A DNA stretch of 11,151 nt, from positions 1-11,151 of the IMG/VR virus record IMGVR_UViG_2802429231_000004. One strand, given 5' to 3'. A model generated the notes under the pieces. The model made no database searches. It was not told the DNA's origin and saw only the letters and a list, made by a program, of their open reading frames with translations. Positions 1-11,151 of the stretch are shown piece by piece (the first letter of the stretch is position 1; each line of letters starts with the position of its first letter). Made by a program: the position numbers and the translations under genes. This DNA comes from a virus (lineage: Duplodnaviria; Heunggongvirae; Uroviricota; Caudoviricetes).

Positions 1-28
1 TGATGAGCTGGCAGCCTGAGTTCACAGG

Positions 29-34
29 TAAAAT
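29..34 (+). promoter_or_regulatory. Candidate -10 hexamer (TAAAAT) of a PR'-like late promoter; the -35 is poor or lies outside the window
   Basis: TAAAAT at 29-34 lies about 195 nt upstream of the tR'-like terminator U-run, matching the ~194-nt lambda 6S RNA spacing. No convincing -35 in the window. Confidence 0.25.
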
Positions 35-204
35 ACTCTCCAGGAAAACCGGGGCGGTTCAGAAAGGAAGGTGCGACCACAATTAATAACAAAATCTTAA
101 AAATTGCACATGGCACTATTAGTTTTCTAAATATTGTGTATTTTTTGTATTGCAGGATGACCCTGTAACGAAGTTTGCGTAACAGCATTTTGCTCTACGA
201 GTTT

Positions 205-234
205 GCCAGCCTCCCCCAGTGGCTGGCTTTTTTA
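205..234 (+). terminator. Rho-independent terminator, tR'-like (end of 6S-type late leader RNA)
   Basis: 7-bp GC-rich stem GCCAGCC/GGCTGGC with 9-nt loop, followed by TTTTTTAT; the 3' tail resembles the lambda tR' region. Confidence 0.6.
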
Positions 235-256
235 TGTCTGTAGCGTCAAAGCAGCA

Positions 257-355
257 ATGTCGCTGGGGCGTCGTGCAATTGGCGTTGAGCTGGAGACTGA
301 ACGTTTTGAGCAGACGGTCAGGGAAGTTCAGGATTTAGTCAGTCAGAACGGATGA
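257..355 (+). pseudogene. Possible C-terminal remnant of a DNA methyltransferase gene (about 32 codons)
   Basis: Translation MSLGRRAIGVELETERFEQTVREVQDLVSQNG matches the C-terminal GRxxIGxE...F/Y...R motif of N6/N4 DNA methyltransferases. The frame is open upstream through the terminator but shows no SAM-binding motif, so only a fragment is present. Confidence 0.3.
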
Positions 356-395
356 TATTGCAGGATTAGTTACGTACCGTTATTATCCTGCGCCC

Positions 396-471
396 GGCCC
401 TTTAGCTCAGTGGTGAGAGCGAGCGACTCATAATCGCCAGGTCGCTGGTTCAAATCCAGCAAGGGCCACCA
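396..471 (+). tRNA. ileZ: tRNA-Ile2 (anticodon CAU, lysidine type), ileX-like; tRNA-Met not strictly excluded
   Basis: 76-nt cloverleaf: acceptor GGCCCTT/AAGGGCC, D-arm TAGCTCAGTGG, anticodon loop CTCATAA, T-loop TTCAAAT, encoded CCA. Closely resembles E. coli ileX as remembered. First of the ileZ-argN-argO-type cluster of Stx phages. Confidence 0.85.
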
Positions 472-480
472 TATCACATA

Positions 481-557
481 CCGCCATTAGCTCATCGGGA
501 TAGAGCGTCAGCCTTCGAAGCTGGCTGTGCGGGGTTCAAGTCCCCGATGGCGGTCCA
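481..557 (+). tRNA. argN: tRNA-Arg (anticodon UCG; decodes CGA/CGG)
   Basis: 77-nt cloverleaf: acceptor CCGCCAT/ATGGCGG, anticodon stem TCAGC/GCTGG with loop CTTCGAA (U33, anticodon TCG, A37), T-arm CGGGG-TTCAAGT-CCCCG, encoded CCA. Confidence 0.85.
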
Positions 558-570
558 TTATCAGCATCAT

Positions 571-647
571 GCGTTGTTAGCTCAGCCGGACAGAGCAATT
601 GCCTTCTAAGCAATCGGTCACTGGTTCGAATCCAGTACAACGCGCCA
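571..647 (+). tRNA. argO: tRNA-Arg (anticodon UCU; decodes AGA/AGG)
   Basis: 77-nt cloverleaf: acceptor GCGTTGT/ACAACGC, anticodon stem ATTGC/GCAAT with loop CTTCTAA (anticodon TCT), T-arm ACTGG-TTCGAAT-CCAGT, encoded CCA. Confidence 0.85.
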
Positions 648-933
648 CACCACACTTATCTGCCCTGACTCTCTTTTGCGGGCTTTTTATTACAGGAAAG
701 ACACCGGACAGTGAAATGTTAAATGCCTCACAATTCAGGTAGTCGACTGTTGCCTGACATGCTGAGCGTTTGTTAAAAAAATCCTGCATGATGAATCCCC
801 CTGGGCGGCGGGGCATAATGACAGATGTTTGGTTGCGTATTGTATAGGCAAGTTGCGGATTCTGTCTGGTCATTGCAGAATTCACCGGGAGGCACCCGGC
901 ATCATGCTGTATACAGAGATTAGGCATATATCC

Positions 934-959
934 AGGCTCCTCATCGCAGGAGCCTTTTT
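934..959 (+). terminator. Rho-independent terminator
   Basis: Stem AGGCTCC/GGAGCCT around loop TCATCGCA, followed by a T-run (955-959). Confidence 0.55.
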
Positions 960-965
960 ACATGC

Positions 966-990
966 AAAAAAAGCCCGAGTAGGTTCGGGC
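966..990 (-). terminator. Hairpin with upstream A-run; would terminate on the minus strand, forming a bidirectional pair with the 934-959 terminator
   Basis: AAAAAAA then GCCCGA-GTAGGT-TCGGGC; on the minus strand this reads as hairpin plus T7. Confidence 0.4.
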
Positions 991-1050
991 AACAGCATGA
1001 GATACTTGCATTGTCATTTTTATCGTGTGGATTTTAACCAGGGTTTATCA

Positions 1051-1076
1051 GGCTGCGCAACTGCGTGGCCTTTTTT
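1051..1076 (+). terminator. Rho-independent terminator
   Basis: GGCTGCGC-AACT-GCGTGGCC hairpin (8 bp including two G-U pairs) followed by TTTTTT. Confidence 0.5.
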
Positions 1077-1084
1077 CATTTCTT

Positions 1085-1129
1085 GGGCTGTAGTCCCCGT
1101 GTGTCATTCAGGCTTCCGGACTACAGCCC
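1085..1129. repeat. Perfect 12-bp inverted repeat (GGGCTGTAGTCC ... GGACTACAGCCC) with 21-nt spacer, about 45 nt upstream of the nanS-p-like start
   Basis: Arms at 1085-1096 and 1118-1129 are exact reverse complements. No U-run follows, so not a canonical intrinsic terminator. Confidence 0.8.
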
Positions 1130-1172
1130 ACTCCATATCTGATTTAATACACTATCCCGGCCGGGAGGAATA

Positions 1173-3026
1173 ATGACATTTAAACATTATGATGTTGTCA
1201 GGGCGGCGTCGCCGTCAGACCTTGCGGAAAAGCTGACACACAAACTGAAAGAGGGCTGGCAGCCGTTTGGTAGTCCGGTGGCCATAACCCCTTATACCCT
1301 GATGCAGGCGATTACAGCAGAAGGTGATGTGATGGTCAGTGGTGCAACTGAGCCGGATTGGTACTACGTCATCGTACTGGCCGGGCAGTCCAATGCCATG
1401 GCTTACGGTGAAGGGCTTCCGCTTCCGGATTCATACGATGCGCCCCATCCGCGCATTAAGCAACTGGCCCGTCGTAACACAGTGACTCCCGGTGGTGAAG
1501 TATGCGTATTTAACGACATCATTCCTGCTGACCATTGTCTGCATGATGTTCAGGATATGAGTACGATTAACCATCCCCGGGCTGACCTGAGCAAAGGGCA
1601 GTACGGCTGTGTCGGACAGGGCTTACATATTGCCAAAAAACTGCTTCCGTATATCCCTAATAATGCGGGGATCCTGCTGGTACCATGCTGTCGTGGTGGT
1701 TCGGCATTCACCCAGGGCACGGAGGGGACATTCAGCGAGTCCACGGGGGCCAGTCAGGATTCGGCTCGCTGGGGAGTGGGTAAGCCGTTATATCAGGATC
1801 TGCTTTTCCGCACGAAGGCAGCATTGCAGAAAAACCCGAAAAACGTTTTGCTGGCGATATGCTGGATGCAGGGGGAATTCGATATGACGAATGCCAGTTA
1901 CGCCCAGCAGCCAGCAGCATTTCTTGCAATGGTACAGCAGTTCCGTGCTGACCTTGCCGGGCTGGCGGCGCAGTGTCACGGTGGAAGTCCGGCATCAGTC
2001 CCCTGGATTTGTGGCGACACGACATACGCGTGGAAACAAGAACACGGTACGCAATATGAAGTGGTATATGGTGCATATAAAGGTAAAGAATCCCAGCAGA
2101 TTTATTTTGTTCCCTTTATGACCGATGGTAGCGGAGTTAATACACCGACAAACAACCCGTCAGAAGATCCTGATATTGTCGGGTCTGGTTATTACGGTTC
2201 GGCATCCCGAACGAACAAAAACTGGGTATCATCAAATCGCCCGACGCATTTCAGCTCATGGGCGCGTCGTGGCATTATTCCCGATCGTATGGCAACCGCT
2301 ATTCTGAACGCAGCCGGGCGCACCTCAGCCTTCATCAGTGGTAAGGCACCGGAAATCAAACCCTCGCCCGGCGGCGACACGCCATCGGGTCCGTCTACAG
2401 ATACGTCCGTTCGCACAATCTCCCTGCTGCCGACAGCCGGAGAGGCTGCTGCGCAGGGCTGGACCATTAAGGACGGCGGAATTCAGTTGTCGGGTGGTGT
2501 ATTTAAGATCGCCAAGCAGAGCAATAAAACCTGGTCCCTGACGCGCCCGGTGGATGACGCAGTCTCCCTGCTGACACGGGGTGGCAGACTGAGCTGTAAG
2601 TTTCGACTGTCAGGCGCACTGACCAACAATCAGTTCGGTCTGGGAATTTATCTGTATACCGATGTAGCGTTACCTGACGTCGTGGCGATGACGGGTACCG
2701 GTAACCCGTTCCTGATGTCGTTCTTCACCCAGACCACAGACGGCAAACTGAATCTGATGCATCACAAGAAAGCAGGAAACACAAAGTTGGGCGAGTTCGG
2801 GAATTACAGTAACGACTGGCAGACGCTGGAGCTGGTGTTCACCGCCGGCAGTGCCACGGTTACTCCGAAACTGAATGGAGTGGCTGGCCCGGCATTCCAG
2901 GTCATAAAAGACAGTCTGACACTGGGGCTGAATGCGCTGACGCTGACGGATATTACCAAAAATGCAGCGTATGGCGTTGAGATAGAAAGTCTGGTGCTGG
3001 AGATAAATGCACCGGCATCATCATAA
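1173..3026 (+). CDS. nanS: NanS-p-like prophage sialate 9-O-acetylesterase (N-terminal DUF1737, central SGNH/SASA esterase domain, C-terminal probable carbohydrate-binding region), 617 aa
   Basis: Long ORF with SD GGGAGG 5 nt upstream. N-terminus MTFKHYDVVRAASPSDLAEKL is DUF1737-like; GQSN esterase motif in VLAGQSNAMAYGEG. Sits in the same place as the large yjhS/nanS-p ORF downstream of stx in Stx2 phages. Confidence 0.85.
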   Translation: MTFKHYDVVRAASPSDLAEKLTHKLKEGWQPFGSPVAITPYTLMQAITAEGDVMVSGATEPDWYYVIVLAGQSNAMAYGEGLPLPDSYDAPHPRIKQLARRNTVTPGGEVCVFNDIIPADHCLHDVQDMSTINHPRADLSKGQYGCVGQGLHIAKKLLPYIPNNAGILLVPCCRGGSAFTQGTEGTFSESTGASQDSARWGVGKPLYQDLLFRTKAALQKNPKNVLLAICWMQGEFDMTNASYAQQPAAFLAMVQQFRADLAGLAAQCHGGSPASVPWICGDTTYAWKQEHGTQYEVVYGAYKGKESQQIYFVPFMTDGSGVNTPTNNPSEDPDIVGSGYYGSASRTNKNWVSSNRPTHFSSWARRGIIPDRMATAILNAAGRTSAFISGKAPEIKPSPGGDTPSGPSTDTSVRTISLLPTAGEAAAQGWTIKDGGIQLSGGVFKIAKQSNKTWSLTRPVDDAVSLLTRGGRLSCKFRLSGALTNNQFGLGIYLYTDVALPDVVAMTGTGNPFLMSFFTQTTDGKLNLMHHKKAGNTKLGEFGNYSNDWQTLELVFTAGSATVTPKLNGVAGPAFQVIKDSLTLGLNALTLTDITKNAAYGVEIESLVLEINAPASS

Positions 3027-3111
3027 AAAGTGAGCCAGTCAAATGGAAGGTATCGTTAAACTCACCGGTAGTGTCAGTGGGTCGTCTGAGATGCCTGCAT
3101 GAGTTATCAGA

Positions 3112-3141
3112 GCCATCAGTACTTAACTGGTGGCTTTTTTT
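3112..3141 (+). terminator. Strong rho-independent terminator between the esterase gene and the holin
   Basis: 8-bp stem GCCATCAG/CTGGTGGC (one G-U), 7-nt loop, followed by TTTTTTT. Confidence 0.65.
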
Positions 3142-3176
3142 ATTGTTGTCAGCTTCCGGATAACGGGAGACGGGGT

Positions 3177-3392
3177 ATGTACCAGATGGAAAAAATCACA
3201 ACAGGTGTGTCATACACCACGTCAGCGGTGGGAACGGGCTACTGGTTCCTGCAGTTGCTGGACAGGGTTTCCCCGTCTCAGTGGGCGGCAATAGGCGTGC
3301 TGGGAAGTCTGCTGTTTGGGCTGCTGACATATCTGACTAACCTGTATTTCAAAATCAGAGAGGACCGGCGTAAGGCCGCCCGGGGAGAGTGA
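3177..3392 (+). CDS. S: Class II holin, phage 21 S-type pinholin (71 aa) with dual-start motif (Met1 and Met4)
   Basis: Sequence from [71 protein letters not shown] is near-identical in its C-terminal half to S21 as remembered; two TMDs. SD GGGAGACGGGG precedes ATG 3177. The track ORF from 3099 is an upstream extension through the terminator. Confidence 0.9.
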
Positions 3393-3395
3393 ATA

Positions 3396-3953
3396 ATGAA
3401 CCATGAAGAAATGAATCAGCGCTTCAGTCGCCTGGAAAATGAAATTGCTGAACTGAATAAAAAACTGTCGACGCTGATGCATTCTGAAGATGAAAAAAAA
3501 CGCCGCGATGAGCAGTTTGCTGCGTTTGACGATTATTGTCGGAAAGTGATGAGCAAAAATCTCGCAGAGTGTTTCAGTATTCATAATGATAATTTCAGTG
3601 AGCTGGAATGGGAGTGTAACCGGCCATCCTTTGTTGTATCCGGTGATGCCGGGAAAATAACCATCTCAGAAAATGGGAAAGTAACACCTCCATCGCACCA
3701 GCACAGTGAGGAGCTCATTGAATTTGCCATTGATTACCTGAAGAACAATAAAAAGCAGGGGCTGATGAAGCGCGTTGGCCGTTGCATGGGATATCTTCAG
3801 GTAGCCGCTGAGATTGAAGCGCTGGCCAGTGGTGCTGATAAGGATGCAATTGTGCGGGAGGCTCTTCTTCGTGATTTTAATACTCCACCCTTTAAAAAAG
3901 TGCCGGCTTACTGGCTTCATCCGGGGCTGACTTATCTTAAAGTGCGTATTTAG
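3396..3953 (+). CDS. Uncharacterised 185-aa soluble protein encoded between holin and endolysin (N-terminal predicted coiled coil, no TM segment)
   Basis: ATG 3396 lies 3 nt after the holin stop, with SD GGGGAGAG inside the holin 3' end (translational coupling). No motif I can assign. Looks lower in GC than the flanking lysis genes. Confidence 0.7.
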   Translation: MNHEEMNQRFSRLENEIAELNKKLSTLMHSEDEKKRRDEQFAAFDDYCRKVMSKNLAECFSIHNDNFSELEWECNRPSFVVSGDAGKITISENGKVTPPSHQHSEELIEFAIDYLKNNKKQGLMKRVGRCMGYLQVAAEIEALASGADKDAIVREALLRDFNTPPFKKVPAYWLHPGLTYLKVRI

Positions 3954-3989
3954 TGGGCCAGGGACAGCGGCTGAATATTTAATATATCC

Positions 3990-4523
3990 ATGAACACCAA
4001 AATCAAATACGGCCTGTCGGCTGCCGTTCTGGCGCTGATTGCCGCTGGTGCGTCTGCGCCTGACATTCTCGACCAGTTTCTGGATGAAAAGGAAGGCAAT
4101 CACACCACGGCATACCGTGATGGTGCAGGTATCTGGACCATCTGCCGTGGTGCCATCATGGTGGATGGCAAACCTGTCGTTCCGGGCATGAAGTTGTCGA
4201 AGGAAAAATGCGACCAGGTTAACGCCATTGAGCGTGATAAAGCGCTGGCGTGGGTGGAGAAAAACATCAAAGTGCCATTGAGCGAACCCCAGAAAGCGGG
4301 GATCGCGTCATTCTGTCCGTACAACATTGGTCCCGGTAAGTGTTTCCCGTCGACGTTTTATAAACGAATTAATGCAGGTGATCGCAGGGGAGCGTGTGAG
4401 GCGATTCGCTGGTGGATTAAGGACGGTGGCAGAGACTGCCGTATTCGTTCAAACAACTGCTACGGTCAGGTATCCCGTCGTGACCAGGAGAGCGCGCTGG
4501 CGTGCTGGGGTATCGACAGATAA
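3990..4523 (+). CDS. R: SAR (signal-anchor-release) endolysin, T4-lysozyme-like muramidase (GH24), phage 21 R-type, 177 aa
   Basis: N-terminal Gly/Ala-rich weakly hydrophobic segment YGLSAAVLALIAAGASA (SAR domain); catalytic triad spacing E-x8-D-x5-T (EGNHTTAYRDGAGIWT). No obvious SD upstream of ATG 3990. Confidence 0.9.
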   Translation: MNTKIKYGLSAAVLALIAAGASAPDILDQFLDEKEGNHTTAYRDGAGIWTICRGAIMVDGKPVVPGMKLSKEKCDQVNAIERDKALAWVEKNIKVPLSEPQKAGIASFCPYNIGPGKCFPSTFYKRINAGDRRGACEAIRWWIKDGGRDCRIRSNNCYGQVSRRDQESALACWGIDR

Positions 4524-4612
4524 GCAGAATATTTTGCTGAAAAATAAAGCATGGCCACGCGGGCGGATAACATGAAATCCTGCGAACTGGCGAAACGTAA
4601 GTGAATAAAAGT

Positions 4613-4651
4613 AAAAACCCCGTTTGTTGGCACCAAGCGGGGTTTTGTGTT
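4613..4651 (+). terminator. Rho-independent terminator-like hairpin between endolysin and spanin genes
   Basis: AAAACCCCG ... CGGGGTTTT with an imperfect inner stem, followed by a U-rich tract (TTTTGTGTTT). Confidence 0.45.
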
Positions 4652-4682
4652 TCCTGACTCCGGAAAAGTCAAAGGAGAAAGT

Positions 4683-4820
4683 GTGTTTGATTTTAGCAAA
4701 CTGATTCGGGAGATTCGAGTGATGGCTGAAAAATTATCCACCTGGAAGTTCATTCTTATCTGGCTGGTGTTTGTGATTATGGCCTCCGGTTATTTCATCG
4801 GTCAGATACGCTGGTGGTGA
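4683..4820 (+). CDS. Small hypothetical single-pass membrane protein (45 aa from GTG 4683; 32 aa if from ATG 4722)
   Basis: SD AGGAG (4673-4677) 5 nt before GTG. Product [45 protein letters not shown] has one C-terminal hydrophobic helix. Stop TGA 4818-4820 abuts the Rz ATG at 4822. Too short for the supplied ORF track. Confidence 0.4.
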
Positions 4821-4821
4821 A

Positions 4822-5286
4822 ATGAACCGCGTACTGTGCGTGGTCATCATTGCCCTGCTGGTGGCCTGTGGTGCGCTTAGTCTGGGGCTGAATCATTACC
4901 GTGATAACGCCATTACCTACAAAGCCCAGCGCGACAAAAATGTCAGAGAACTGAAGCTGGCGAACGCGGCAATTACTGACATGCAGATGCGTCAGCGTGA
5001 TGTTGCTGCGCTCGATGCAAAATACACGAAGGAGTTAGCTGATGCGAAAGCTGAAAATGATGCTCTGCGTGATGATGTTGCCGCTGGTCGTCGTCGGTTG
5101 CACATCAAAGCAGTCTGTCAGTCAGTGCGTGAAGCCACCACCGCCTCCGGCGTGGATAATGCAGCCTCCCCCCGACTGGCAGACACCGCTGAACGGGATT
5201 ATTTCACCCTCAGAGCGCGACTGATAATAATGCAAAAACAACTTGAAGGGGCACAGCTATACATTCGAGAGCAATGCCTCAGATAA
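4822..5286 (+). CDS. Rz: Rz i-spanin (inner-membrane spanin subunit), lambda type
   Basis: Near-identical to lambda Rz as remembered ([74 protein letters not shown]); N-terminal TMD. Confidence 0.95.
5042..5224 (+). CDS. Rz1: Rz1 o-spanin lipoprotein, embedded in the +1 frame of Rz
   Basis: [20 protein letters not shown] lipobox signal followed by proline-rich [15 protein letters not shown], matching lambda Rz1; fully nested in Rz. Confidence 0.9.
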
Positions 5287-5593
5287 AAACCGGCCAAGGA
5301 TAATCCGCTGAAGATTCGCCGGTGGCTAAAGTGTGCCAAGAGTTCAATTTACGCAATTACTCCTGTCGATGCTATGCACCGTCTTTGTGAAGTCAATGGA
5401 TACCTGATTTATTTCTGTGCGCTGTATCGTCGCTGTACTCTTGCATTAATTATGACTGTAGCCTGACGGGGAACTCCTTCTGCACAAGTGTGGGGGAATA
5501 ATCAAAAACGATGCACACCGGGGTTACCGGGTACACATATTTCATCATGCCAGCGAGTCCGGTTCTGGCACGGAAGAAACCGGACGTTATGAT

Positions 5594-6004
5594 TTAGTGC
5601 GGAAATATTTGTGTAGTGTTCTGAATGTTCTCAGTAAAGAGTAATGAATTATCAAAGGTATAGTAATACCTTTTGTTTTCGTGGATATTTGTAATCCATC
5701 TGAAAACCCCTGCTGTAGCAAGATTTTTCCTGTATTCGTAAAATGATAACTCTCCTGATTTGAATCCTTTTAAGGTGGCTTCTATAAGGCATTTATTTTT
5801 TGAAAATCTTACATTTACAACCTTACCCTGTCCTTTTATTAAAACCGTATTATCGTTTTCAAGAACAAGATGAATATTCTCTGTGGCTAAATAGTAAATG
5901 TAATGTGAGACATTGTGACGTTTTAGTTCAGAATAAAACCAGTGATAGTTTAAATTATTTCGCACTTTATCGAATATTTGTTTAAAAATGGCAACCTGAG
6001 CCAT
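5594..6004 (-). CDS. Hypothetical protein, possibly YbcV/YdfO-like (DUF1398) prophage family, 136 aa from the second Met; very AT-rich
   Basis: Minus-strand ORF; likely start is the ATG at 6004 with SD GAAGG 7 nt upstream (the track start at 6019 adds MEGTT). Size and C-terminal [18 protein letters not shown] resemble my recollection of DUF1398 proteins; a homologous region exists in the lambda right arm. Family assignment is from memory only. Confidence 0.6.
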
Positions 6005-6061
6005 TGTAGTACCTTCCATGTGATATGAGGGGGCGTAGTCTGCACGATTATCTAAATTGCT

Positions 6062-6295
6062 TCAATCTGGTCTGACCTGTTTTCTGAGCAATTCAGTAAT
6101 GTCACTCTTTTCTTTGTTTGCTTCAGGCGAAACTCTTTTTACTGAGCACAGTCTCCGGCGGCAGGCTTCAATGACCCAGGCTGAGAAATTCCCGGACCCT
6201 TTTTGAACAAGAGCGATGTTAATTTGTTCAATCATTTGGTTAGGAAAGCGGATGTTGCGGGTTGTTGTTCTGCGGGTTCTGTTCTTCGTTGACAT
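6062..6295 (-). CDS. Small ribbon-helix-helix (Arc/MetJ/CopG-like) DNA-binding protein, possibly YlcI/YnfO-like (DUF3950), 77 aa
   Basis: Basic N-terminus MSTKNRTRRTTTRNIRFPNQMIEQINIALVQKGSGNFSAWVIEACRRRL fits beta-strand/helix A/helix B of RHH regulators. Lies 42 nt upstream of, and co-oriented with, the 136-aa ORF. Confidence 0.65.
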   Translation of the reverse strand: MSTKNRTRRTTTRNIRFPNQMIEQINIALVQKGSGNFSAWVIEACRRRLCSVKRVSPEANKEKSDITELLRKQVRPD

Positions 6296-6494
6296 GAGGT
6301 TGCCCCGTATTCAGTGTCGCTGATTTGTATTGTCTGAAGTTGTTTTTACGTTAAGTTGATGCAGATCAATTAATACGATACCTGCGTCATAATTAATTAT
6401 TTGACGTGGTTTGATGGCGTAGATGCACGTTGTGACATGTAGATGATAATTATTATCATTTTGCGGGTCCTTTCCGGCGATCCGACAGGTTACG

Positions 6495-6506
6495 GGGCGG
6501 CGACCT
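6495..6506 (+). other. cos: cosN cohesive-end sequence (GGGCGGCGACCT) of a lambda-type cos site; cosQ-like sequence upstream and cosB downstream towards the small-terminase gene
   Basis: Exact lambda 12-nt cohesive end, preceded by GATCCGACAGGTTACG (lambda right-end sequence) and followed by CGCG..TTTTC.CTATTTATGA (lambda left-end-like). Confidence 0.85.
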
Positions 6507-6543
6507 CGCGCGTTTTCACTATTTATGAGATTTTTTGAGGGGG

Positions 6544-6555
6544 TGGTTGTTGTTT
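6544..6555 (+). repeat. cosB-region repeat TGGTTGTTGTTT (copy 1); candidate small-terminase binding element
   Basis: Exact 12-mer repeated at 6681-6692, with an inverted 9-mer ACAACAACC at 6604-6612, all between cosN and the small-terminase start. Confidence 0.4.
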
Positions 6556-6680
6556 AATTGTTTGGTATATCTAATTGATAAGTAAGGTGAAAATAAAATA
6601 AATACAACAACCTTACGATGTGTTTTGATGTCGTCAATGCAAAAAATGTCAATGATATCAAATGGTTTTGCAAAAACACA

Positions 6681-6692
6681 TGGTTGTTGTTT
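6681..6692 (+). repeat. cosB-region repeat TGGTTGTTGTTT (copy 2)
   Basis: Identical to the 6544-6555 12-mer; lies 31 nt upstream of the predicted small-terminase start. Confidence 0.4.
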
Positions 6693-6722
6693 CGCTTTTT
6701 ATCGATGACTTATGGAGAGGAG

Positions 6723-7229
6723 ATGGCCTTTTTATTGAATAAAAGTGATATGGCCTCCTCCATCGGTATCTCTGTTCAGGCATTTGATAAATGGGGCGTT
6801 CCTCCTGTTGAACGTCGGGGGAGGGAAGTTTTATATGACGTTAAAACTGTACTGGAGATAGATCGCGAGCGGCGACAACACAATCAGAGAACACCTGATG
6901 ACGGGGGAGAACTGGAGGAAAGGCTGCTTCGGGCCAGAGCTGAACTGACAGAAGAACAGGCTGTAGCTCAAAAACTTAAAAATCAGGTAACCGAAGGTAA
7001 GCTCATCGATTCAGACTTCTGCGTTTTCGCCCTCAGCAAACTGGCGATGGCATTGTCCAGTACGCTTGATTCCATTCCGTTATCCATGCAGCGACAGTTC
7101 CCGGATTTAACGCCACGTCATATTGACCATCTGAAAACCCTTATTGCAAAGGGGGCAAATCAGTGTGCGCGGGCAGGGGATAAATTACCGGATTTACTCG
7201 ATGAATATATCAGAGCAACAACTGAATAA
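6723..7229 (+). CDS. nu1: Terminase small subunit (Nu1 family), 168 aa
   Basis: C-terminal half aligns with lambda Nu1 as remembered (FCVFALSKLAMALSSTLDSIPLSMQRQFPDL..HIDHLK vs FCTFVLSRIAGEIASILDGLPLSVQRRFPEL..HVDFLK). Start chosen at ATG 6723 with SD GGAGAGGAG; the track ORF from 6618 is an extension across cosB. Overlaps the large-subunit start. Confidence 0.85.
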   Translation: MAFLLNKSDMASSIGISVQAFDKWGVPPVERRGREVLYDVKTVLEIDRERRQHNQRTPDDGGELEERLLRARAELTEEQAVAQKLKNQVTEGKLIDSDFCVFALSKLAMALSSTLDSIPLSMQRQFPDLTPRHIDHLKTLIAKGANQCARAGDKLPDLLDEYIRATTE

Positions 7230-9129
7230 TATGATGGCTGCCGTTTCGGTTGCGCTGCAGCCTCTGGTCAGGGTTGTACCAATGACGGCAGTTGAATGGG
7301 CTGATCAAAATTATTATCTGCCTAAAGAATCTTCATATGGTGAGGGAGAATGGAAAACGCTGCCATTCCAGATCGCCATTATGAACTGTATGGGTAACGA
7401 CCAGGTTCGCACGGTTAACCTGATTAAATCTGCCCGTGTTGGCTATACAAAGATGTTGCTGGGGGTGGTCGGGTATTTTATTGAGCATAAATCCCGAAAC
7501 AGTCTGCTTTTTCAGCCCACGGATTCTGCCGCTGAAGATTTTATGAAGTCTCACGTGGAGGCGACGATTCGGAACGTGCCATGCCTGAAAGACCTTTCCC
7601 CATGGCTGGGGCGTAAACATCGTGACAATACTCTCACGCTGAAACGCTTTTCATCGGGCGTCGGTTTCTGGTGCCTGGGCGGCGCTGCCGCCAAAAACTA
7701 CCGTGAAAAATCCGTGGACGTGGTCTGCTATGACGAACTTTCCTCGTTCGAGCCGGATGTCGAAAAAGAGGGCTCGCCAACCCTGCTGGGGGATAAGCGT
7801 ATTGAGGGGTCGGTGTGGCCAAAATCCATTCGCGGCTCGACGCCTAAAATCAAAGGCACCTGCCAGATCGAAAAAGCCGCTAACGAGTCGGCGCATTTTA
7901 TGCGTTTTTATGTGCCCTGCCCGCACTGTGGGGAGGAGCAGTATCTGAAATTTGGCGATGAGTCCACGCCTTTTGGGCTTAAATGGGAGAAGGACAGCCC
8001 TGAAAGTGTTTTCTACCTCTGTGAACATCATGGCTGCGTGATCCATCAGTCTGAACTGGACCAGAGCAACGGGCGGTGGATCTGTGAAAACACGGGCATG
8101 TGGACCCGTGACGGTCTGACGTTTTTCAGCGCCCGGGGTGATGAAATTCCGCCGCCGCGCTCCATCACGTTCCATATCTGGACGGCGTACAGTCCGTTCA
8201 CCACCTGGGTACAGATTGTCTATGACTGGCTGGATGCACTGAAAGATCCCAACGGCCTGAAAACCTTTGTGAACACCACGCTGGGCGAGACCTGGGAAGA
8301 GGCCGTGGGCGAAAAACTCGATCACCAGGTACTGATGGATAAGGTGGTGCGTTACACGGCGGCGGTGCCTGCCCGGGTGGTTTATCTGACGGCGGGCATT
8401 GACTCGCAGCGAAACCGTTTTGAGATGTATGTCTGGGGATGGGCTCCGGGAGAGGAAGCCTTTCTGGTGGATAAAATCATCATTATGGGGCGTCCTGATG
8501 AGGAAGAGACGCTGTTACGTGTGGATGCGGCGATCAACAAAAAATACCGCCATGCGGATGGCACCGAAATGACTATTTCCCGTGTCTGCTGGGACACCGG
8601 GGGGATCGATGGTGAAATTGTTTATCAGAGATCAAAAAAACACGGTGTTTTCCGGGTGCTGCCGGTAAAAGGCGCATCTGTCTATGGCAAGCCGGTGATC
8701 ACCATGCCAAAAACCCGCAATCAGCGGGGCGTGTATCTGTGTGAAGTGGGAACGGACACCGCAAAAGAAATTCTCTATGCCCGTATGAAAGCCGATCCCT
8801 CGCCTGCGGATGAAGCCACGTCGTATGCCATCCGTTTTCCTGATGATCCGGAGATTTTTTCGCAGACAGAGGCGCAGCAACTGGTGGCGGAAGAGCTGGT
8901 GGAGAAGTGGGAAAAAGGAAAGATGCGTCTGCTGTGGGATAACAAAAAGCGGCGTAACGAAGCGCTGGACTGCCTGGTGTATGCCTACGCGGCATTACGT
9001 GTGTCCGTGCAACGCTGGCAGCTTGATCTGGCTGTACTGGCAAAATCCCGGGAAGAAGAGACGACCCGGCCAACCCTGAAAGAACTGGCAGCGAAGCTGT
9101 CCGGAGGAGTGAATGGTTACAGTCGCTGA
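7201..9129 (+). CDS. A: Terminase large subunit (gpA family), 642 aa
   Basis: MNISEQQ start and strong collinear similarity to lambda gpA (TAVEWADQNYYLPKES, VGYTKMLLGV, CPHCGEEQYLKFGD, TTLGETWEE, ALDCLVYAYAALR). The track ORF from 7144 is an upstream extension. Confidence 0.95.
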   Translation: MNISEQQLNNMMAAVSVALQPLVRVVPMTAVEWADQNYYLPKESSYGEGEWKTLPFQIAIMNCMGNDQVRTVNLIKSARVGYTKMLLGVVGYFIEHKSRNSLLFQPTDSAAEDFMKSHVEATIRNVPCLKDLSPWLGRKHRDNTLTLKRFSSGVGFWCLGGAAAKNYREKSVDVVCYDELSSFEPDVEKEGSPTLLGDKRIEGSVWPKSIRGSTPKIKGTCQIEKAANESAHFMRFYVPCPHCGEEQYLKFGDESTPFGLKWEKDSPESVFYLCEHHGCVIHQSELDQSNGRWICENTGMWTRDGLTFFSARGDEIPPPRSITFHIWTAYSPFTTWVQIVYDWLDALKDPNGLKTFVNTTLGETWEEAVGEKLDHQVLMDKVVRYTAAVPARVVYLTAGIDSQRNRFEMYVWGWAPGEEAFLVDKIIIMGRPDEEETLLRVDAAINKKYRHADGTEMTISRVCWDTGGIDGEIVYQRSKKHGVFRVLPVKGASVYGKPVITMPKTRNQRGVYLCEVGTDTAKEILYARMKADPSPADEATSYAIRFPDDPEIFSQTEAQQLVAEELVEKWEKGKMRLLWDNKKRRNEALDCLVYAYAALRVSVQRWQLDLAVLAKSREEETTRPTLKELAAKLSGGVNGYSR

Positions 9130-9319
9130 ACTGCAGGCGCTGCGTCAGGCGCGCCTTGATTTATTAACCGGTAAACGGGTGGTGTCTGTCCAGAAAGATG
9201 GTCGCAGAATTGAATATACGGCGGCTTCTCTGGATGAGCTTAACCGGGCGATCAATGATGCGGAGTCGGTACTGGGGACAACCCGGCGTCGCCGTCGTCC
9301 GCTGGGAGTGAGGTTATGA
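9113..9319 (+). CDS. W: Head-tail joining protein gpW, 68 aa
   Basis: Similar to lambda gpW (LTGKRVVSVQKDGRRIEYTAASL vs [23 protein letters not shown]); SD GGAGGAG upstream; start overlaps the terminase end. Confidence 0.9.
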   Translation: MVTVAELQALRQARLDLLTGKRVVSVQKDGRRIEYTAASLDELNRAINDAESVLGTTRRRRRPLGVRL

Positions 9320-10908
9320 AACGAACGCCTGTCCTGATTGATGTGAACGGCGTTCCGCTTCGTGAGAGTCTCAGCTACAACGGGGGCGGTGCAGGATTTG
9401 GCGGGCAAATGGCGGAGTGGTTGCCACCGGCGCAGAGTGCCGATGCAGCCCTGCTGCCTGCGTTGCGTCTGGGGAATGCCCGGGCAGATGATCTGGTGCG
9501 CAATAACGGAATAGCGGCCAATGCGGTGGCACTGCATAAGGATCACATTGTCGGGCATATGTTTCTTATCAGCTACCGTCCGAACTGGCGCTGGCTGGGG
9601 ATGCGGGAGACCGCAGCAAAAAGCTTTGTCGATGAGGTGGAGGCGGCCTGGCCGGAATACGCCGAAGGGATGTCTGGCGAGATCGACGTGGAAGGAAAAC
9701 GCACGTTCACGGAATTTATCCGTGAAGGTGTGGGCGTTCATGCGTTTAACGGCGAAATCTTTGTGCAGCCGGTCTGGGATACGGAAACCACGCAGTTATT
9801 CCGTACGCGTTTTAAAGCCGTGAGTCCGAAACGGGTGGACACGCCAGGACACGGTATGGGGAACCGTTTTCTGCGGGCCGGGGTGGAGGTCGATCGATAT
9901 GGCCGTGCCGTTGCGTACCATATCTGTGAGGATGATTTTCCTCGCTCCGGGAGTGGACGATGGGAACGGATCCCGCGTGAACTTCCCACCGGGCGTCCGG
10001 CCATGCTGCATATTTTCGAGCCGGTGGAGGACGGGCAGACCCGTGGGGCCAACCAGTTTTACAGCGTCATGGAACGGCTGAAGATGCTCGATTCCCTGCA
10101 GGCAACACAGCTTCAGTCGGCCATTGTGAAAGCCATGTATGCAGCGACGATTGAAAGTGACCTTGATACCGAAAAGGCCTTTGAATATATCGCCGGTGCG
10201 CCGCAGGGGCAGAAGGATAATCCGCTTATTAATATTCTGGAGAAGTTCTCCACCTGGTATGACACGAATAACGTGACGCTGGGTGGTGTCAAAATTCCGC
10301 ACCTTTTCCCCGGGGATGATCTGAAACTACAGACTGCGCAGGATTCAGACAATGGATTTTCGGCGCTTGAACAGGCGCTGCTGCGGTATATCGCCGCCGG
10401 TCTTGGCGTTTCCTACGAACAGTTGTCCCGTGATTACTCGAAGGTCAGTTATTCAAGTGCCAGGGCCTCTGCCAATGAGTCGTGGCGCTATTTTATGGGG
10501 CGGCGAAAATTTATTGCGGCCCGGCTGGCCACGCAGATGTTTTCCTGCTGGCTGGAAGAGGCACTTCTTCGGGGGATTATCCGTCCGCCACGGGCGCGTT
10601 TTGATTTTTATCAGGCGCGATCAGCCTGGTCACGGGCAGAGTGGATTGGTGCCGGAAGAATGGCCATTGACGGGCTCAAGGAGGTTCAGGAATCGGTGAT
10701 GCGCATTGAGGCCGGACTGAGCACGTATGAGAAAGAGCTGGCGCTGATGGGCGAGGATTATCAGGACATTTTCCGCCAGCAGGTCAGGGAATCTGCAGAG
10801 CGGCAAAAAGCCGGACTCTCACGTCCGGTGTGGATAGCGCAGGCGTATCAGCAGCAGATAGCGGAGAGTCGCAGGCCGGAAGAGGAGACAACACCCCGTG
10901 AGACGTAA
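9316..10908 (+). CDS. B: Portal protein gpB, 530 aa
   Basis: Collinear similarity to lambda gpB (GNARADDLVRNNG, FEPVEDGQTRGAN, LQSAIVKAMYAATIES, LLRYIAAGLGVSYEQLSR, GRMAIDGLKEVQE); ATGA overlap with the W stop. Confidence 0.95.
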   Translation: MKRTPVLIDVNGVPLRESLSYNGGGAGFGGQMAEWLPPAQSADAALLPALRLGNARADDLVRNNGIAANAVALHKDHIVGHMFLISYRPNWRWLGMRETAAKSFVDEVEAAWPEYAEGMSGEIDVEGKRTFTEFIREGVGVHAFNGEIFVQPVWDTETTQLFRTRFKAVSPKRVDTPGHGMGNRFLRAGVEVDRYGRAVAYHICEDDFPRSGSGRWERIPRELPTGRPAMLHIFEPVEDGQTRGANQFYSVMERLKMLDSLQATQLQSAIVKAMYAATIESDLDTEKAFEYIAGAPQGQKDNPLINILEKFSTWYDTNNVTLGGVKIPHLFPGDDLKLQTAQDSDNGFSALEQALLRYIAAGLGVSYEQLSRDYSKVSYSSARASANESWRYFMGRRKFIAARLATQMFSCWLEEALLRGIIRPPRARFDFYQARSAWSRAEWIGAGRMAIDGLKEVQESVMRIEAGLSTYEKELALMGEDYQDIFRQQVRESAERQKAGLSRPVWIAQAYQQQIAESRRPEEETTPRET

Positions 10909-11095
10909 TCTTTCACACATTATTGCCGCAGCATTCAATGAACCGCTGCTTCTGGAGCCCGCCTATGCGCGGGTTTTCTTTTGCGCGCTCGGGCGCGAGA
11001 TGGGGGCAGCAAGTCTTTCGGTACCACAGCAGCAGGTACAGCTTGATGCTCCCGGAATGCTGGCTGAAACGGACGAGTACATGGCCGGAGGGTAA
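10898..11095 (+). pseudogene. C: gpC-like (prohead protease/scaffold) N-terminal ORF ending after 65 codons; truncated, frameshifted or replaced
   Basis: GTG start overlaps the portal stop as in lambda. The first ~30 residues (HIIAAAFNEPLLLEPAYARVFFCAL) match the lambda gpC N-terminus; the sequence then diverges and hits TAA at 11093-11095. The window ends 56 nt later. Confidence 0.45.
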
Positions 11096-11151
11096 GCGGC
11101 TCGTCAGAACCGTATTGATATTTACTGAGAGCTCAGATCAACTTTCCAGGG

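Follow-up and report, generated by a model that had tools for sequence, protein, structure and literature searches.

The stretch of DNA analysed here (the window) comprises positions 1–11,151 of the IMG/VR virus record IMGVR_UViG_2802429231_000004, and its content is the late region of a lambdoid Escherichia coli prophage. The subject of this report is the 525-bp interval 648–1172, which extends from the end of the last of three tRNA genes (647) to the start of a NanS-p-type sialate O-acetylesterase gene (1173). The features of the locus are listed in Table 1. Two known small RNA (sRNA) genes fill about 270 of the 525 bp, a gene of the STnc100 family on the plus strand and an EcOnc03-type anti-sRNA gene on the minus strand. 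The two genes are convergent, and the first plus-strand terminator (T1) and the minus-strand terminator are located back to back at 934–990. In the original prediction, made from the letters alone, the interval was regarded as a vacant site for toxin cargo. The description as vacant does not hold, since the sRNA pair occupies about half of the interval and only the part at about 648–749 is empty.

Table 1. Features of the tRNA–esterase interval and of the adjoining late region. Coordinates are those of the window.
Feature	Position	Strand	Basis and remarks
IS629/IS1203, terminal 60 bp	2–61		95% identity to the annotated insertion sequence (IS) in Sakai Sp5; directly adjoins the PR'/tR' block
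PR'/tR' block	60–242		99.5% identity to the BP-4795 (Stx1 phage) sequence immediately behind Q (blastn)
DNA methylase remnant	between PR'/tR' block and tRNA genes
tRNA CAT, ileZ-type CAU	396–471	+	ARAGORN (label: Met), Rfam tRNA
tRNA TCG, argN-type UCG	481–557	+	ARAGORN, Rfam tRNA
tRNA TCT, argO-type UCU	571–647	+	ARAGORN, Rfam tRNA; the trio 396–647 is the left border of the cargo site
Empty cargo (moron) junction	~648–749		between tRNA-Arg and the plus-strand sRNA promoter
Predicted plus-strand sRNA promoter	750–779	+	-35 TTGCCT 750–755, 18-nt spacer, extended -10 TGT-TAAAAA 771–779
STnc100-family sRNA gene	757–965	+	Rfam RF02076; T1 at the 3' end
First terminator (T1)	stem 934–955 and T-run, to ~959/960	+	terminator scan
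Minus-strand terminator	stem 990–973; T-run = A's at plus-strand 966–972	-	terminator scan
EcOnc03-type anti-sRNA gene	1025–966	-	5' variable part CGAUAAAAAUGACAAUGCA, then conserved scaffold with terminator AGUAUCUCAUGCUGUUGCCCGAACCUACUCGGGCUUUUUUU
Predicted anti-sRNA promoter	1031–1060	-	-10 TAAAAT (complement of 1031–1036), 18-nt spacer, -35 TTGCGC (complement of 1055–1060)
Second terminator (T2)	1050–1077	+	stem 1050–1071, 9 bp, AACU loop, U-run
Strong hairpin in esterase 5' leader	1084–1130	+	13-bp perfect stem 1084–1096/1118–1130, 21-nt loop
Small hairpin over esterase Shine-Dalgarno GGGAGG	1156–1172	+	CCCGGCCGGG; fold; Sp9 counterpart CCCGGAAAGGGG
NanS-p-type sialate O-acetylesterase gene, 617 aa	1173–3026	+	Pfam DUF1737, SASA, DUF6645; right border of the interval
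P21-type holin gene	3177–3392		Pfam
185-aa open reading frame	3396–3953		no Pfam match; between holin and lysozyme genes
Phage lysozyme gene	3990–4523		Pfam
Rz gene	4822–5286		Pfam

The earlier claim that the interval has this length and no protein gene is in agreement with our results. The open reading frames (ORFs) 577–927 on the minus strand and 829–1173 on the plus strand both exist in the ORF list, and a Pfam search gave no match for either. In a four-way alignment of homologues, the A-run at 966–972 consists of 6, 7 or 8 bases. Thus, the frame of 829–1173 is shifted among homologues and is not conserved, and the coding reading of both ORFs was rejected. The four hairpins that had been pointed out (934–959, 966–990, 1051–1076 and 1085–1129) are all present, the last of them as a 13-bp stem spanning 1084–1130. 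Seven terminator-like sites were detected in positions 1–3400, whereas shuffled sequence gave 3.1 +/- 1.9.

The plus-strand sRNA gene

The Rfam model RF02076 (STnc100) matches 757–965 on the plus strand with a score of 175.6 bits (E = 3.5e-41; gathering cut-off 47 bits), and the match covers model positions 1–206 of 206. The copy ends in an intrinsic terminator and is located in a lambdoid late region, as is characteristic of the family. It is 99% identical to the copy in prophage Sp9 of the Sakai strain and 78% identical to that in Sp5. Judging from the sequence, the gene is the orthologue of EcOnc28 (Sp9), EcOnc27/sRNA103 (Sp5, a Stx2 phage) and EcOnc06 (Sp17). These share with the window copy the full-length match to the model, the terminator and the place directly upstream of an anti-sRNA gene. 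The window copy directly follows the tRNA genes, whereas the copy in Stx phages follows stxB.

According to Table S2 of PMC4104026, EcOnc27 was seen in Sakai by northern blot and Hfq-CRAC, and EcOnc28 by Hfq-CRAC. The northern probe for EcOnc27 (supplement of PMC4104026) is the complement of window positions ~905–940. The Hfq peak of EcOnc28 was placed at window positions ~864–909, after correction for an offset of ~137 bases between the coordinates of the genome versions.

The bases of the predicted promoter are invariant in the four-way alignment A1. In alignment A2 they align with TTGACT/TAAAAA of PasD2 of enteropathogenic E. coli (EPEC). The promoter, as read from the sequence, would place the start near G786. 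This base aligns with position 741157 of NC_011601, at which the RIL-seq reads of PasD2 begin (supplement of PMC8550237). The probable transcript would extend over ~786–960 and have a length of ~175 nt, which is near the ~177 nt reported for EcOnc06.

PasD1 and PasD2 of EPEC E2348/69 (Pearl Mizrahi 2021, PMC8550237; Zhu, Shabalina & Storz preprint 10.64898/2026.05.13.724894) are distant relatives of STnc100 and are also located upstream of a sialate esterase gene. PasD2 aligns with the window sRNA at its 5' end and in the elements of its promoter. In contrast, PasD reaches only 41–46 bits against STnc100, has a UGUGAG seed before a single terminator, and has no anti-sRNA partner at its loci. 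Identification of the window copy as PasD was rejected, because alignment A2 groups it with the STnc100 type of Sp5 and Sp9 and not with PasD2 of E2348/69 or with the E. albertii locus L087. Among the related loci, two full STnc100 copies were observed upstream of the esterase gene in L039, L041 and L048 (2101–2291 and 2569–2778). L043 also has two full copies (835–1024 and 2569–2778), with an IS element between them.

The minus-strand anti-sRNA gene

On the minus strand, Rfam reports AgvB (RF02702) at 966–1025 with 56.2 bits (cut-off 56) and AsxR (RF02703) with 44 bits (cut-off 63). According to the Rfam alignments, the similarity to both RNAs is confined to the 3' scaffold, and the 5' end resembles neither. 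Fig. S4 in the supplement of Tree et al. 2014 (PMC4104026) gives the sequence of EcOnc03 from Sakai Sp9 as AAATGACAATGCAAGTATCTCATGCTGTTGCCCGAACCCACTCGGGCTTTT. The window RNA is identical to it in 50 of 51 bases, and the identity includes the whole 5' variable region AAAUGACAAUGCA. The single mismatch falls in the terminator loop (CCU versus CCC). The two copies also share the promoter block, the position between the tRNA genes and the esterase gene, and the orientation, convergent with a STnc100-type sRNA. Window positions 245–1300 are collinear with Sp9 at 89% identity (blastn), and thus the locus is orthologous to the EcOnc28/EcOnc03 pair of Sp9. The content of the interval is already known in this sense.

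The anti-sRNA class is characterized by a conserved 3' region of ~42 nt and a variable 5' region of 14–18 nt, with a total length of 51–60 nt (PMC4104026). The window RNA has this layout, a variable 5' region being followed by the ~42-nt conserved region with the terminator; its scaffold AGUAUCUCAUGCUGUUGCCCGAACCUACUCGGGCUUUU is one loop base off that of EcOnc03. Its location also fits the class, as the gene lies in the moron site, 3' of PR', and faces a second sRNA gene. At least eight Sakai prophages have a convergent pair of sRNAs that bind Hfq, placed after PR' and ahead of the lysis genes (PMC4104026; review PMC7873438). EcOnc03 was the third most abundant unannotated Hfq-CRAC RNA (PMC4104026 and its Table S2). 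In the same study, northern forms of 56, ~54 and 51 nt were detected, and the RNA was destabilised without Hfq.

AgvB and AsxR antagonise the host sRNAs GcvB and FnrS, respectively (Tree et al. 2014, Mol Cell 55:199, PMC4104026). The window RNA is similar to both in the ~42-nt 3' scaffold with terminator, the Hfq-binding class, the shortness and the genomic position. The name AgvB, as given by Rfam, was nevertheless rejected, since the window RNA has the variable 5' part of EcOnc03 and reaches the cut-off only through the common scaffold. The motif CACAACA, by which AgvB proper mimics the target of GcvB R1, is absent from the 5' region of the window RNA. AsxR was also rejected, because the score is below the cut-off and the window RNA has a different 5' region in place of the AsxR one, which is complementary to the FnrS terminator loop.

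The bases of the predicted anti-sRNA promoter are invariant in alignment A1, and loci that encode AgvB, AsxR or a fourth sRNA on the minus strand retain the same -35. Transcription would start at ~1018–1025, in agreement with the start of the Rfam model and with the mapped forms of 56, 54 and 51 nt (Tree 2014). The fourth RNA (...CACGUUUUAUUGUUUAUUCCUUGCCGCCCGCGUCUCCCAGCGCGGGCUUUUUUU) was observed at the anti-sRNA position in L039 (~2780–2900) and in the L013/L038/L047 class. It is apparently driven from the same -35 inside T2, and it matches the EPEC RIL-seq candidate 'E2348C_1409/1408 IGR' (PMC8550237, Fig. S5).

The original prediction had also offered a small-RNA locus as one possibility, and two sRNA genes are indeed present. 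The RNA that it proposed, ~90 nt at 991–1076 of the plus strand and ending at the terminator 1050–1077, is on the wrong strand and at the wrong coordinates. T2 is a good intrinsic terminator and highly conserved, and Rfam gives weak matches to MicA, OmrA-B and GcvB on the plus strand of this region. These matches are below threshold, however (14–21 bits versus cut-offs of 40–42), and the fold of 991–1078 is no better than that of shuffles (z = -0.52). No conserved promoter precedes the region, as the candidate TTTACA-17-TAGGTT at 955–986 loses the A at position 2 of the -10 in Sp9, BP-4795 and Sp5. In the part of Table S2 of Tree 2014 that was consulted, EcOnc28 is the only Hfq peak listed for the plus strand next to EcOnc03 of Sp9. 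In addition, the 5' half of the proposed RNA is the antisense of the anti-sRNA. A plus-strand RNA at 991–1076 is thus very improbable, and it was rejected in favour of the convergent pair.

Proposed action and target screen

From these features, the following mechanism is proposed. The STnc100-type sRNA would be made from its own promoter and end at the terminator 934–960. The EcOnc03-type anti-sRNA of 51–60 nt would be made from the promoter 1031–1060 and end at the terminator 990–966. By homology with AgvB and AsxR, its 3' scaffold should bind Hfq, and its variable 5' end AAAAAUGACAAUGCA may pair with a host sRNA, which would be blocked or destabilised. In this way, host regulation would be retuned from the prophage state. 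In lytic growth, the Q-modified polymerase from PR' would pass all the terminators and go on to the esterase and lysis genes.

For AgvB, AsxR and EcOnc03, the 5' region was paired by RNAduplex with 20 K-12 sRNAs from NC_000913.3. The controls behaved as expected from the known antagonists: the AgvB–GcvB duplex has -19.5 kcal/mol (next -12.9), and the top match of AsxR is FnrS. EcOnc03 gave no clear winner among the 20 sRNAs. The energies are -11.5 kcal/mol for GcvB R1 (z = 0.05), -10.5 for MicC, -10.3 for ArcZ, -10.2 for McaS and -9.7 for MicA, and thus the window type differs from AgvB in its GcvB duplex by -11.5 versus -19.5 kcal/mol. A target of EcOnc03 is not named in the literature searched.

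The cargo junction and the toxin genes

The original prediction recognized in this locus the backbone of Shiga toxin (Stx) phages, and the comparison with such phages agrees. In the Stx2 prophage Sakai Sp5, the left flank corresponds to window 60–688, which matches to 55 nt before stx2A with 93.6% identity. The right flank corresponds to window 728–1280, which matches from 46 nt after stx2B with 77.8% identity (both by blastn). Thus, the stx2AB block of 1,341 bp takes the place of window 689–727. In the Stx1 phage BP-4795, the matching of window 60–242 after Q is followed by a gap, and homology restarts at 714, ~40 nt after stx1B. The toxin block of BP-4795 replaces the methylase remnant, the tRNA genes and 66 nt more. 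The sRNA pair is kept downstream of stxB in both cases, with the EcOnc03 type in BP-4795 and AsxR in Sp5. Furthermore, about 50 Stx1a phage records have a stretch downstream of stx1B that is 95.5% identical to window 875–1180. The stx moron site (BP-4795; Sakai Sp5, 933W-type) has the sRNA pair and the esterase and lysis genes in common with the window, as well as the PR'/tR' block and, in the Stx2 type, the tRNA trio. It differs in the toxin genes, of which the window has neither copies nor remnants. By this comparison, the points at which stx2AB and stx1AB join the backbone are fixed to within ~40 bp.

A Stx-converting locus has stxA and stxB after PR'/tRNAs and ahead of the sRNA pair. In the window, neither an ORF nor any similarity to stx was found in 648–760; a blastn-short search of this part against the stx1 and stx2 cassettes gave only chance 8–13-mers (best E = 0.23). 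The fold of the junction 648–749 is no better than that of shuffles (z = +0.31). We surveyed 67 related loci, mostly from IMG/VR, all of which contain the STnc100 core as well as the last tRNA. The junction is short and empty in 35 of them. It contains a ~620-nt insert with a 108-aa ORF in 22, TerB and DUF3927 genes in eight, a larger insert in one and stx2 in one. The ~620-nt insert, the commonest cargo in the sample, was observed in L011 and 21 similar IMG/VR loci, and its ORF begins MVFSALNIYHSYGVGRVNIDEASG. The junction of Sakai Sp9 is likewise short and stx-less. These results indicate that the junction beside the tRNA genes is a swap point for several cargos, and that the empty state is common, being found in about half of the loci sampled. 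The conserved tRNA and sRNA flanks probably permit the cassettes to be swapped by homologous recombination.

These data also bear on the proposal that the gap is a scar left by deletion of stxAB from a former Stx phage. The backbone common to Stx phages and the high identity of window 875–1180 to the stretch downstream of stx1B would fit such an origin. On the other hand, the search for a stx promoter or coding remnant in 648–760 was negative, and the same short junction recurs in the 35 loci and in Sp9. Other cargos occur at the same point, and the exchange of cassettes between conserved flanks explains the pattern with no deletion. A deletion scar is therefore unlikely. Homologous exchange from flank to flank leaves no scar, and so the present junction is compatible with past toxin occupancy and does not tell whether the window copy once carried the toxin. 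As evidence against a vacant site, the original prediction had named the same arrangement in stx-negative phages with read-through late mRNA as the only transcript. The arrangement is in fact common in stx-negative prophages (Sp9; 510 genomes), whereas transcripts other than read-through are documented for Sp9 (PMC4104026).

Weighing of the evidence

With a probability of about 0.88, we consider the interval to be a late-region cargo ('moron') site in its stx-less form, most of which is taken up by two convergent, Hfq-dependent sRNA genes that are already known. Our own results establish how the sequence matches the known RNAs, where the terminators and breakpoints lie, and how the locus is distributed. 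For the orthologues, other workers have shown expression, binding to Hfq and the sizes of the transcripts. The promoters are predictions, and we infer the sponge action of the EcOnc03-type RNA on a putative target. Several points weigh against this reading. Expression of the window copy is deduced from its orthologues. EcOnc27 has a northern size of 235/247 nt, which exceeds the ~175 nt predicted here for the plus-strand RNA. The minimum-free-energy fold of 757–965 is not strongly better than that of shuffles (z = -1.55). The AgvB score is barely at the cut-off (56.2 versus 56), with the GcvB-target motif missing. As the 5' region has no clear duplex partner, the sponge role is an extrapolation from the class. 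Finally, the IS629 end abuts PR' and no Q antiterminator gene lies immediately upstream, which makes a defect of this prophage in late transcription probable; late read-through may never occur at this locus.

The second terminator and the esterase leader

T2 overlaps the -35 of the anti-sRNA promoter. Of the 21 unique sequence variants that were aligned, 19 retain its core, CTGCGCAA(C/T)(T/A)GCGCGG. Of the two exceptions, one variant is one base off, and the other, L093, is an unrelated chance match. The loci in which T2 is conserved carry four different minus-strand sRNAs, namely AgvB, AsxR, EcOnc03 and the fourth RNA described above. Since the core includes the -35 of the anti-sRNA, the conservation may reflect the promoter, a back-up terminator, or both. 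A T-G wobble in the stem makes folding more favourable for the plus-strand RNA. We propose for T2 the role of an insulator or back-up terminator in front of the esterase and lysis genes.

The hairpin 1084–1130 has a folding energy of -28 kcal/mol (z = -5.3), and none of 200 shuffles was as good. Around a variable loop, the outer stem GGGCTG/CAGCCC is conserved. Three stem types were found; Sp9 has two compensatory pairs, whereas the common type-B loci have uncompensated mismatches. On this moderate evidence, the hairpin may be a conserved RNA structure. The small hairpin over the Shine-Dalgarno sequence is possibly an element of translational control.

It is conceivable, although doubtful, that T2 and the hairpin 1084–1130 form a regulatory leader of the esterase and lysis genes, and such a leader may coexist with the convergent sRNA pair. 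T2 would then stop transcription that escapes T1 in lysogens, and at the 5' end of the late mRNA the hairpin would serve for protection or processing. The two elements are kept as a block wherever a minus-strand sRNA occurs, and the wobble pairs favour the plus-strand RNA. The high stability of the hairpin, its two compensatory pairs in Sp9 and the small hairpin over the Shine-Dalgarno sequence also fit a leader. The uncompensated mismatches of the type-B loci argue against it, and the T2 core is perhaps conserved merely as the -35 region of the anti-sRNA. Moreover, both elements are absent from the esterase leaders of the PasD-type loci (E2348/69, E. albertii) and of the AT-rich class.

An extension of the sRNA-pair reading may tentatively be proposed. 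The specificity of the EcOnc03 type would be unlike that of AgvB and AsxR, and its RNA might act as a sponge of a host sRNA for which no link to prophage control has been made so far, or of a target beyond the 20 screened. The block of T2 and the hairpin could at the same time serve as a leader of its own, by which the esterase and lysis genes would be insulated in lysogens.

The terminator stems at window 934–955 and 1050–1071 and the single PasD terminator (L095, L087) are alike, with the pattern AGGCTxCxCAxxxGCxxxGCCT followed by a T-run. This likeness hints at an anti-sRNA cassette between duplicated terminators.

The prophage and the neighbouring genes

The full window is 99.4% identical to a prophage of the O55:H7 strain DEC5D, and positions 380–1250 are 100% identical to a stretch of the bovine E. 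coli strain E2863. The RefSeq annotation of this identical stretch, and that of Sakai Sp5, backs the calls of the tRNA trio. The esterase is named 'SASA family carbohydrate esterase' in RefSeq.

A hairpin GCCAGCC...GGCTGGC with a T-run was observed at ~207–236, inside the PR'/tR' block. In Stx phages, the late transcript that ends early at the PR'/tR' position gives the sRNA StxS (EcOnc15).

The spacer between the esterase and holin genes (3027–3176) contains a strong plus-strand terminator at 3109–3137. PasA and PasC of EPEC map between the esterase and holin genes, and thus a further sRNA gene may occupy this spacer. A comparison by eye of the PasA fragment from the published supplement with the spacer showed no obvious match. 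The ORF 3396–3953 resembles an extra gene placed within the lysis cassette.

Distribution and implications

Among 5,426 complete E. coli genomes, the stretch 380–1250 is present in near-complete form in 510. The EcOnc03-type 49-mer (988–1036) occurs in 532 of them, at 701 places. The EcOnc03 type is thus found in about 10% of the complete E. coli genomes, and it also occurs downstream of stx1 in Stx1a phages. For a wider sampling of species, genome contigs were scanned with the N-terminus of the esterase; nine loci were obtained, of which three were useful (two of E. albertii and one of E. coli).

No RefSeq feature lies under the EcOnc03-type 49-mer in any of the 12 matching genomes displayed, and none lies in the gap of strain E2863. 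Since the anti-sRNA is not annotated in these RefSeq records, the gap looks vacant in the raw sequence. Studies based on Rfam have already reported STnc100, AgvB and AsxR in such flanks (preprint 10.64898/2026.05.13.724894; PMC12370729; PMC12711010).

The result leaves the current understanding unchanged, and adds to it in small ways by the stx breakpoints, the cargo census, the overlap of T2 with the -35 and the negative target screen. Its main value is the correction of annotation: the gap contains two regulatory RNA genes of the kind used by prophages to retune the Hfq networks of the host.

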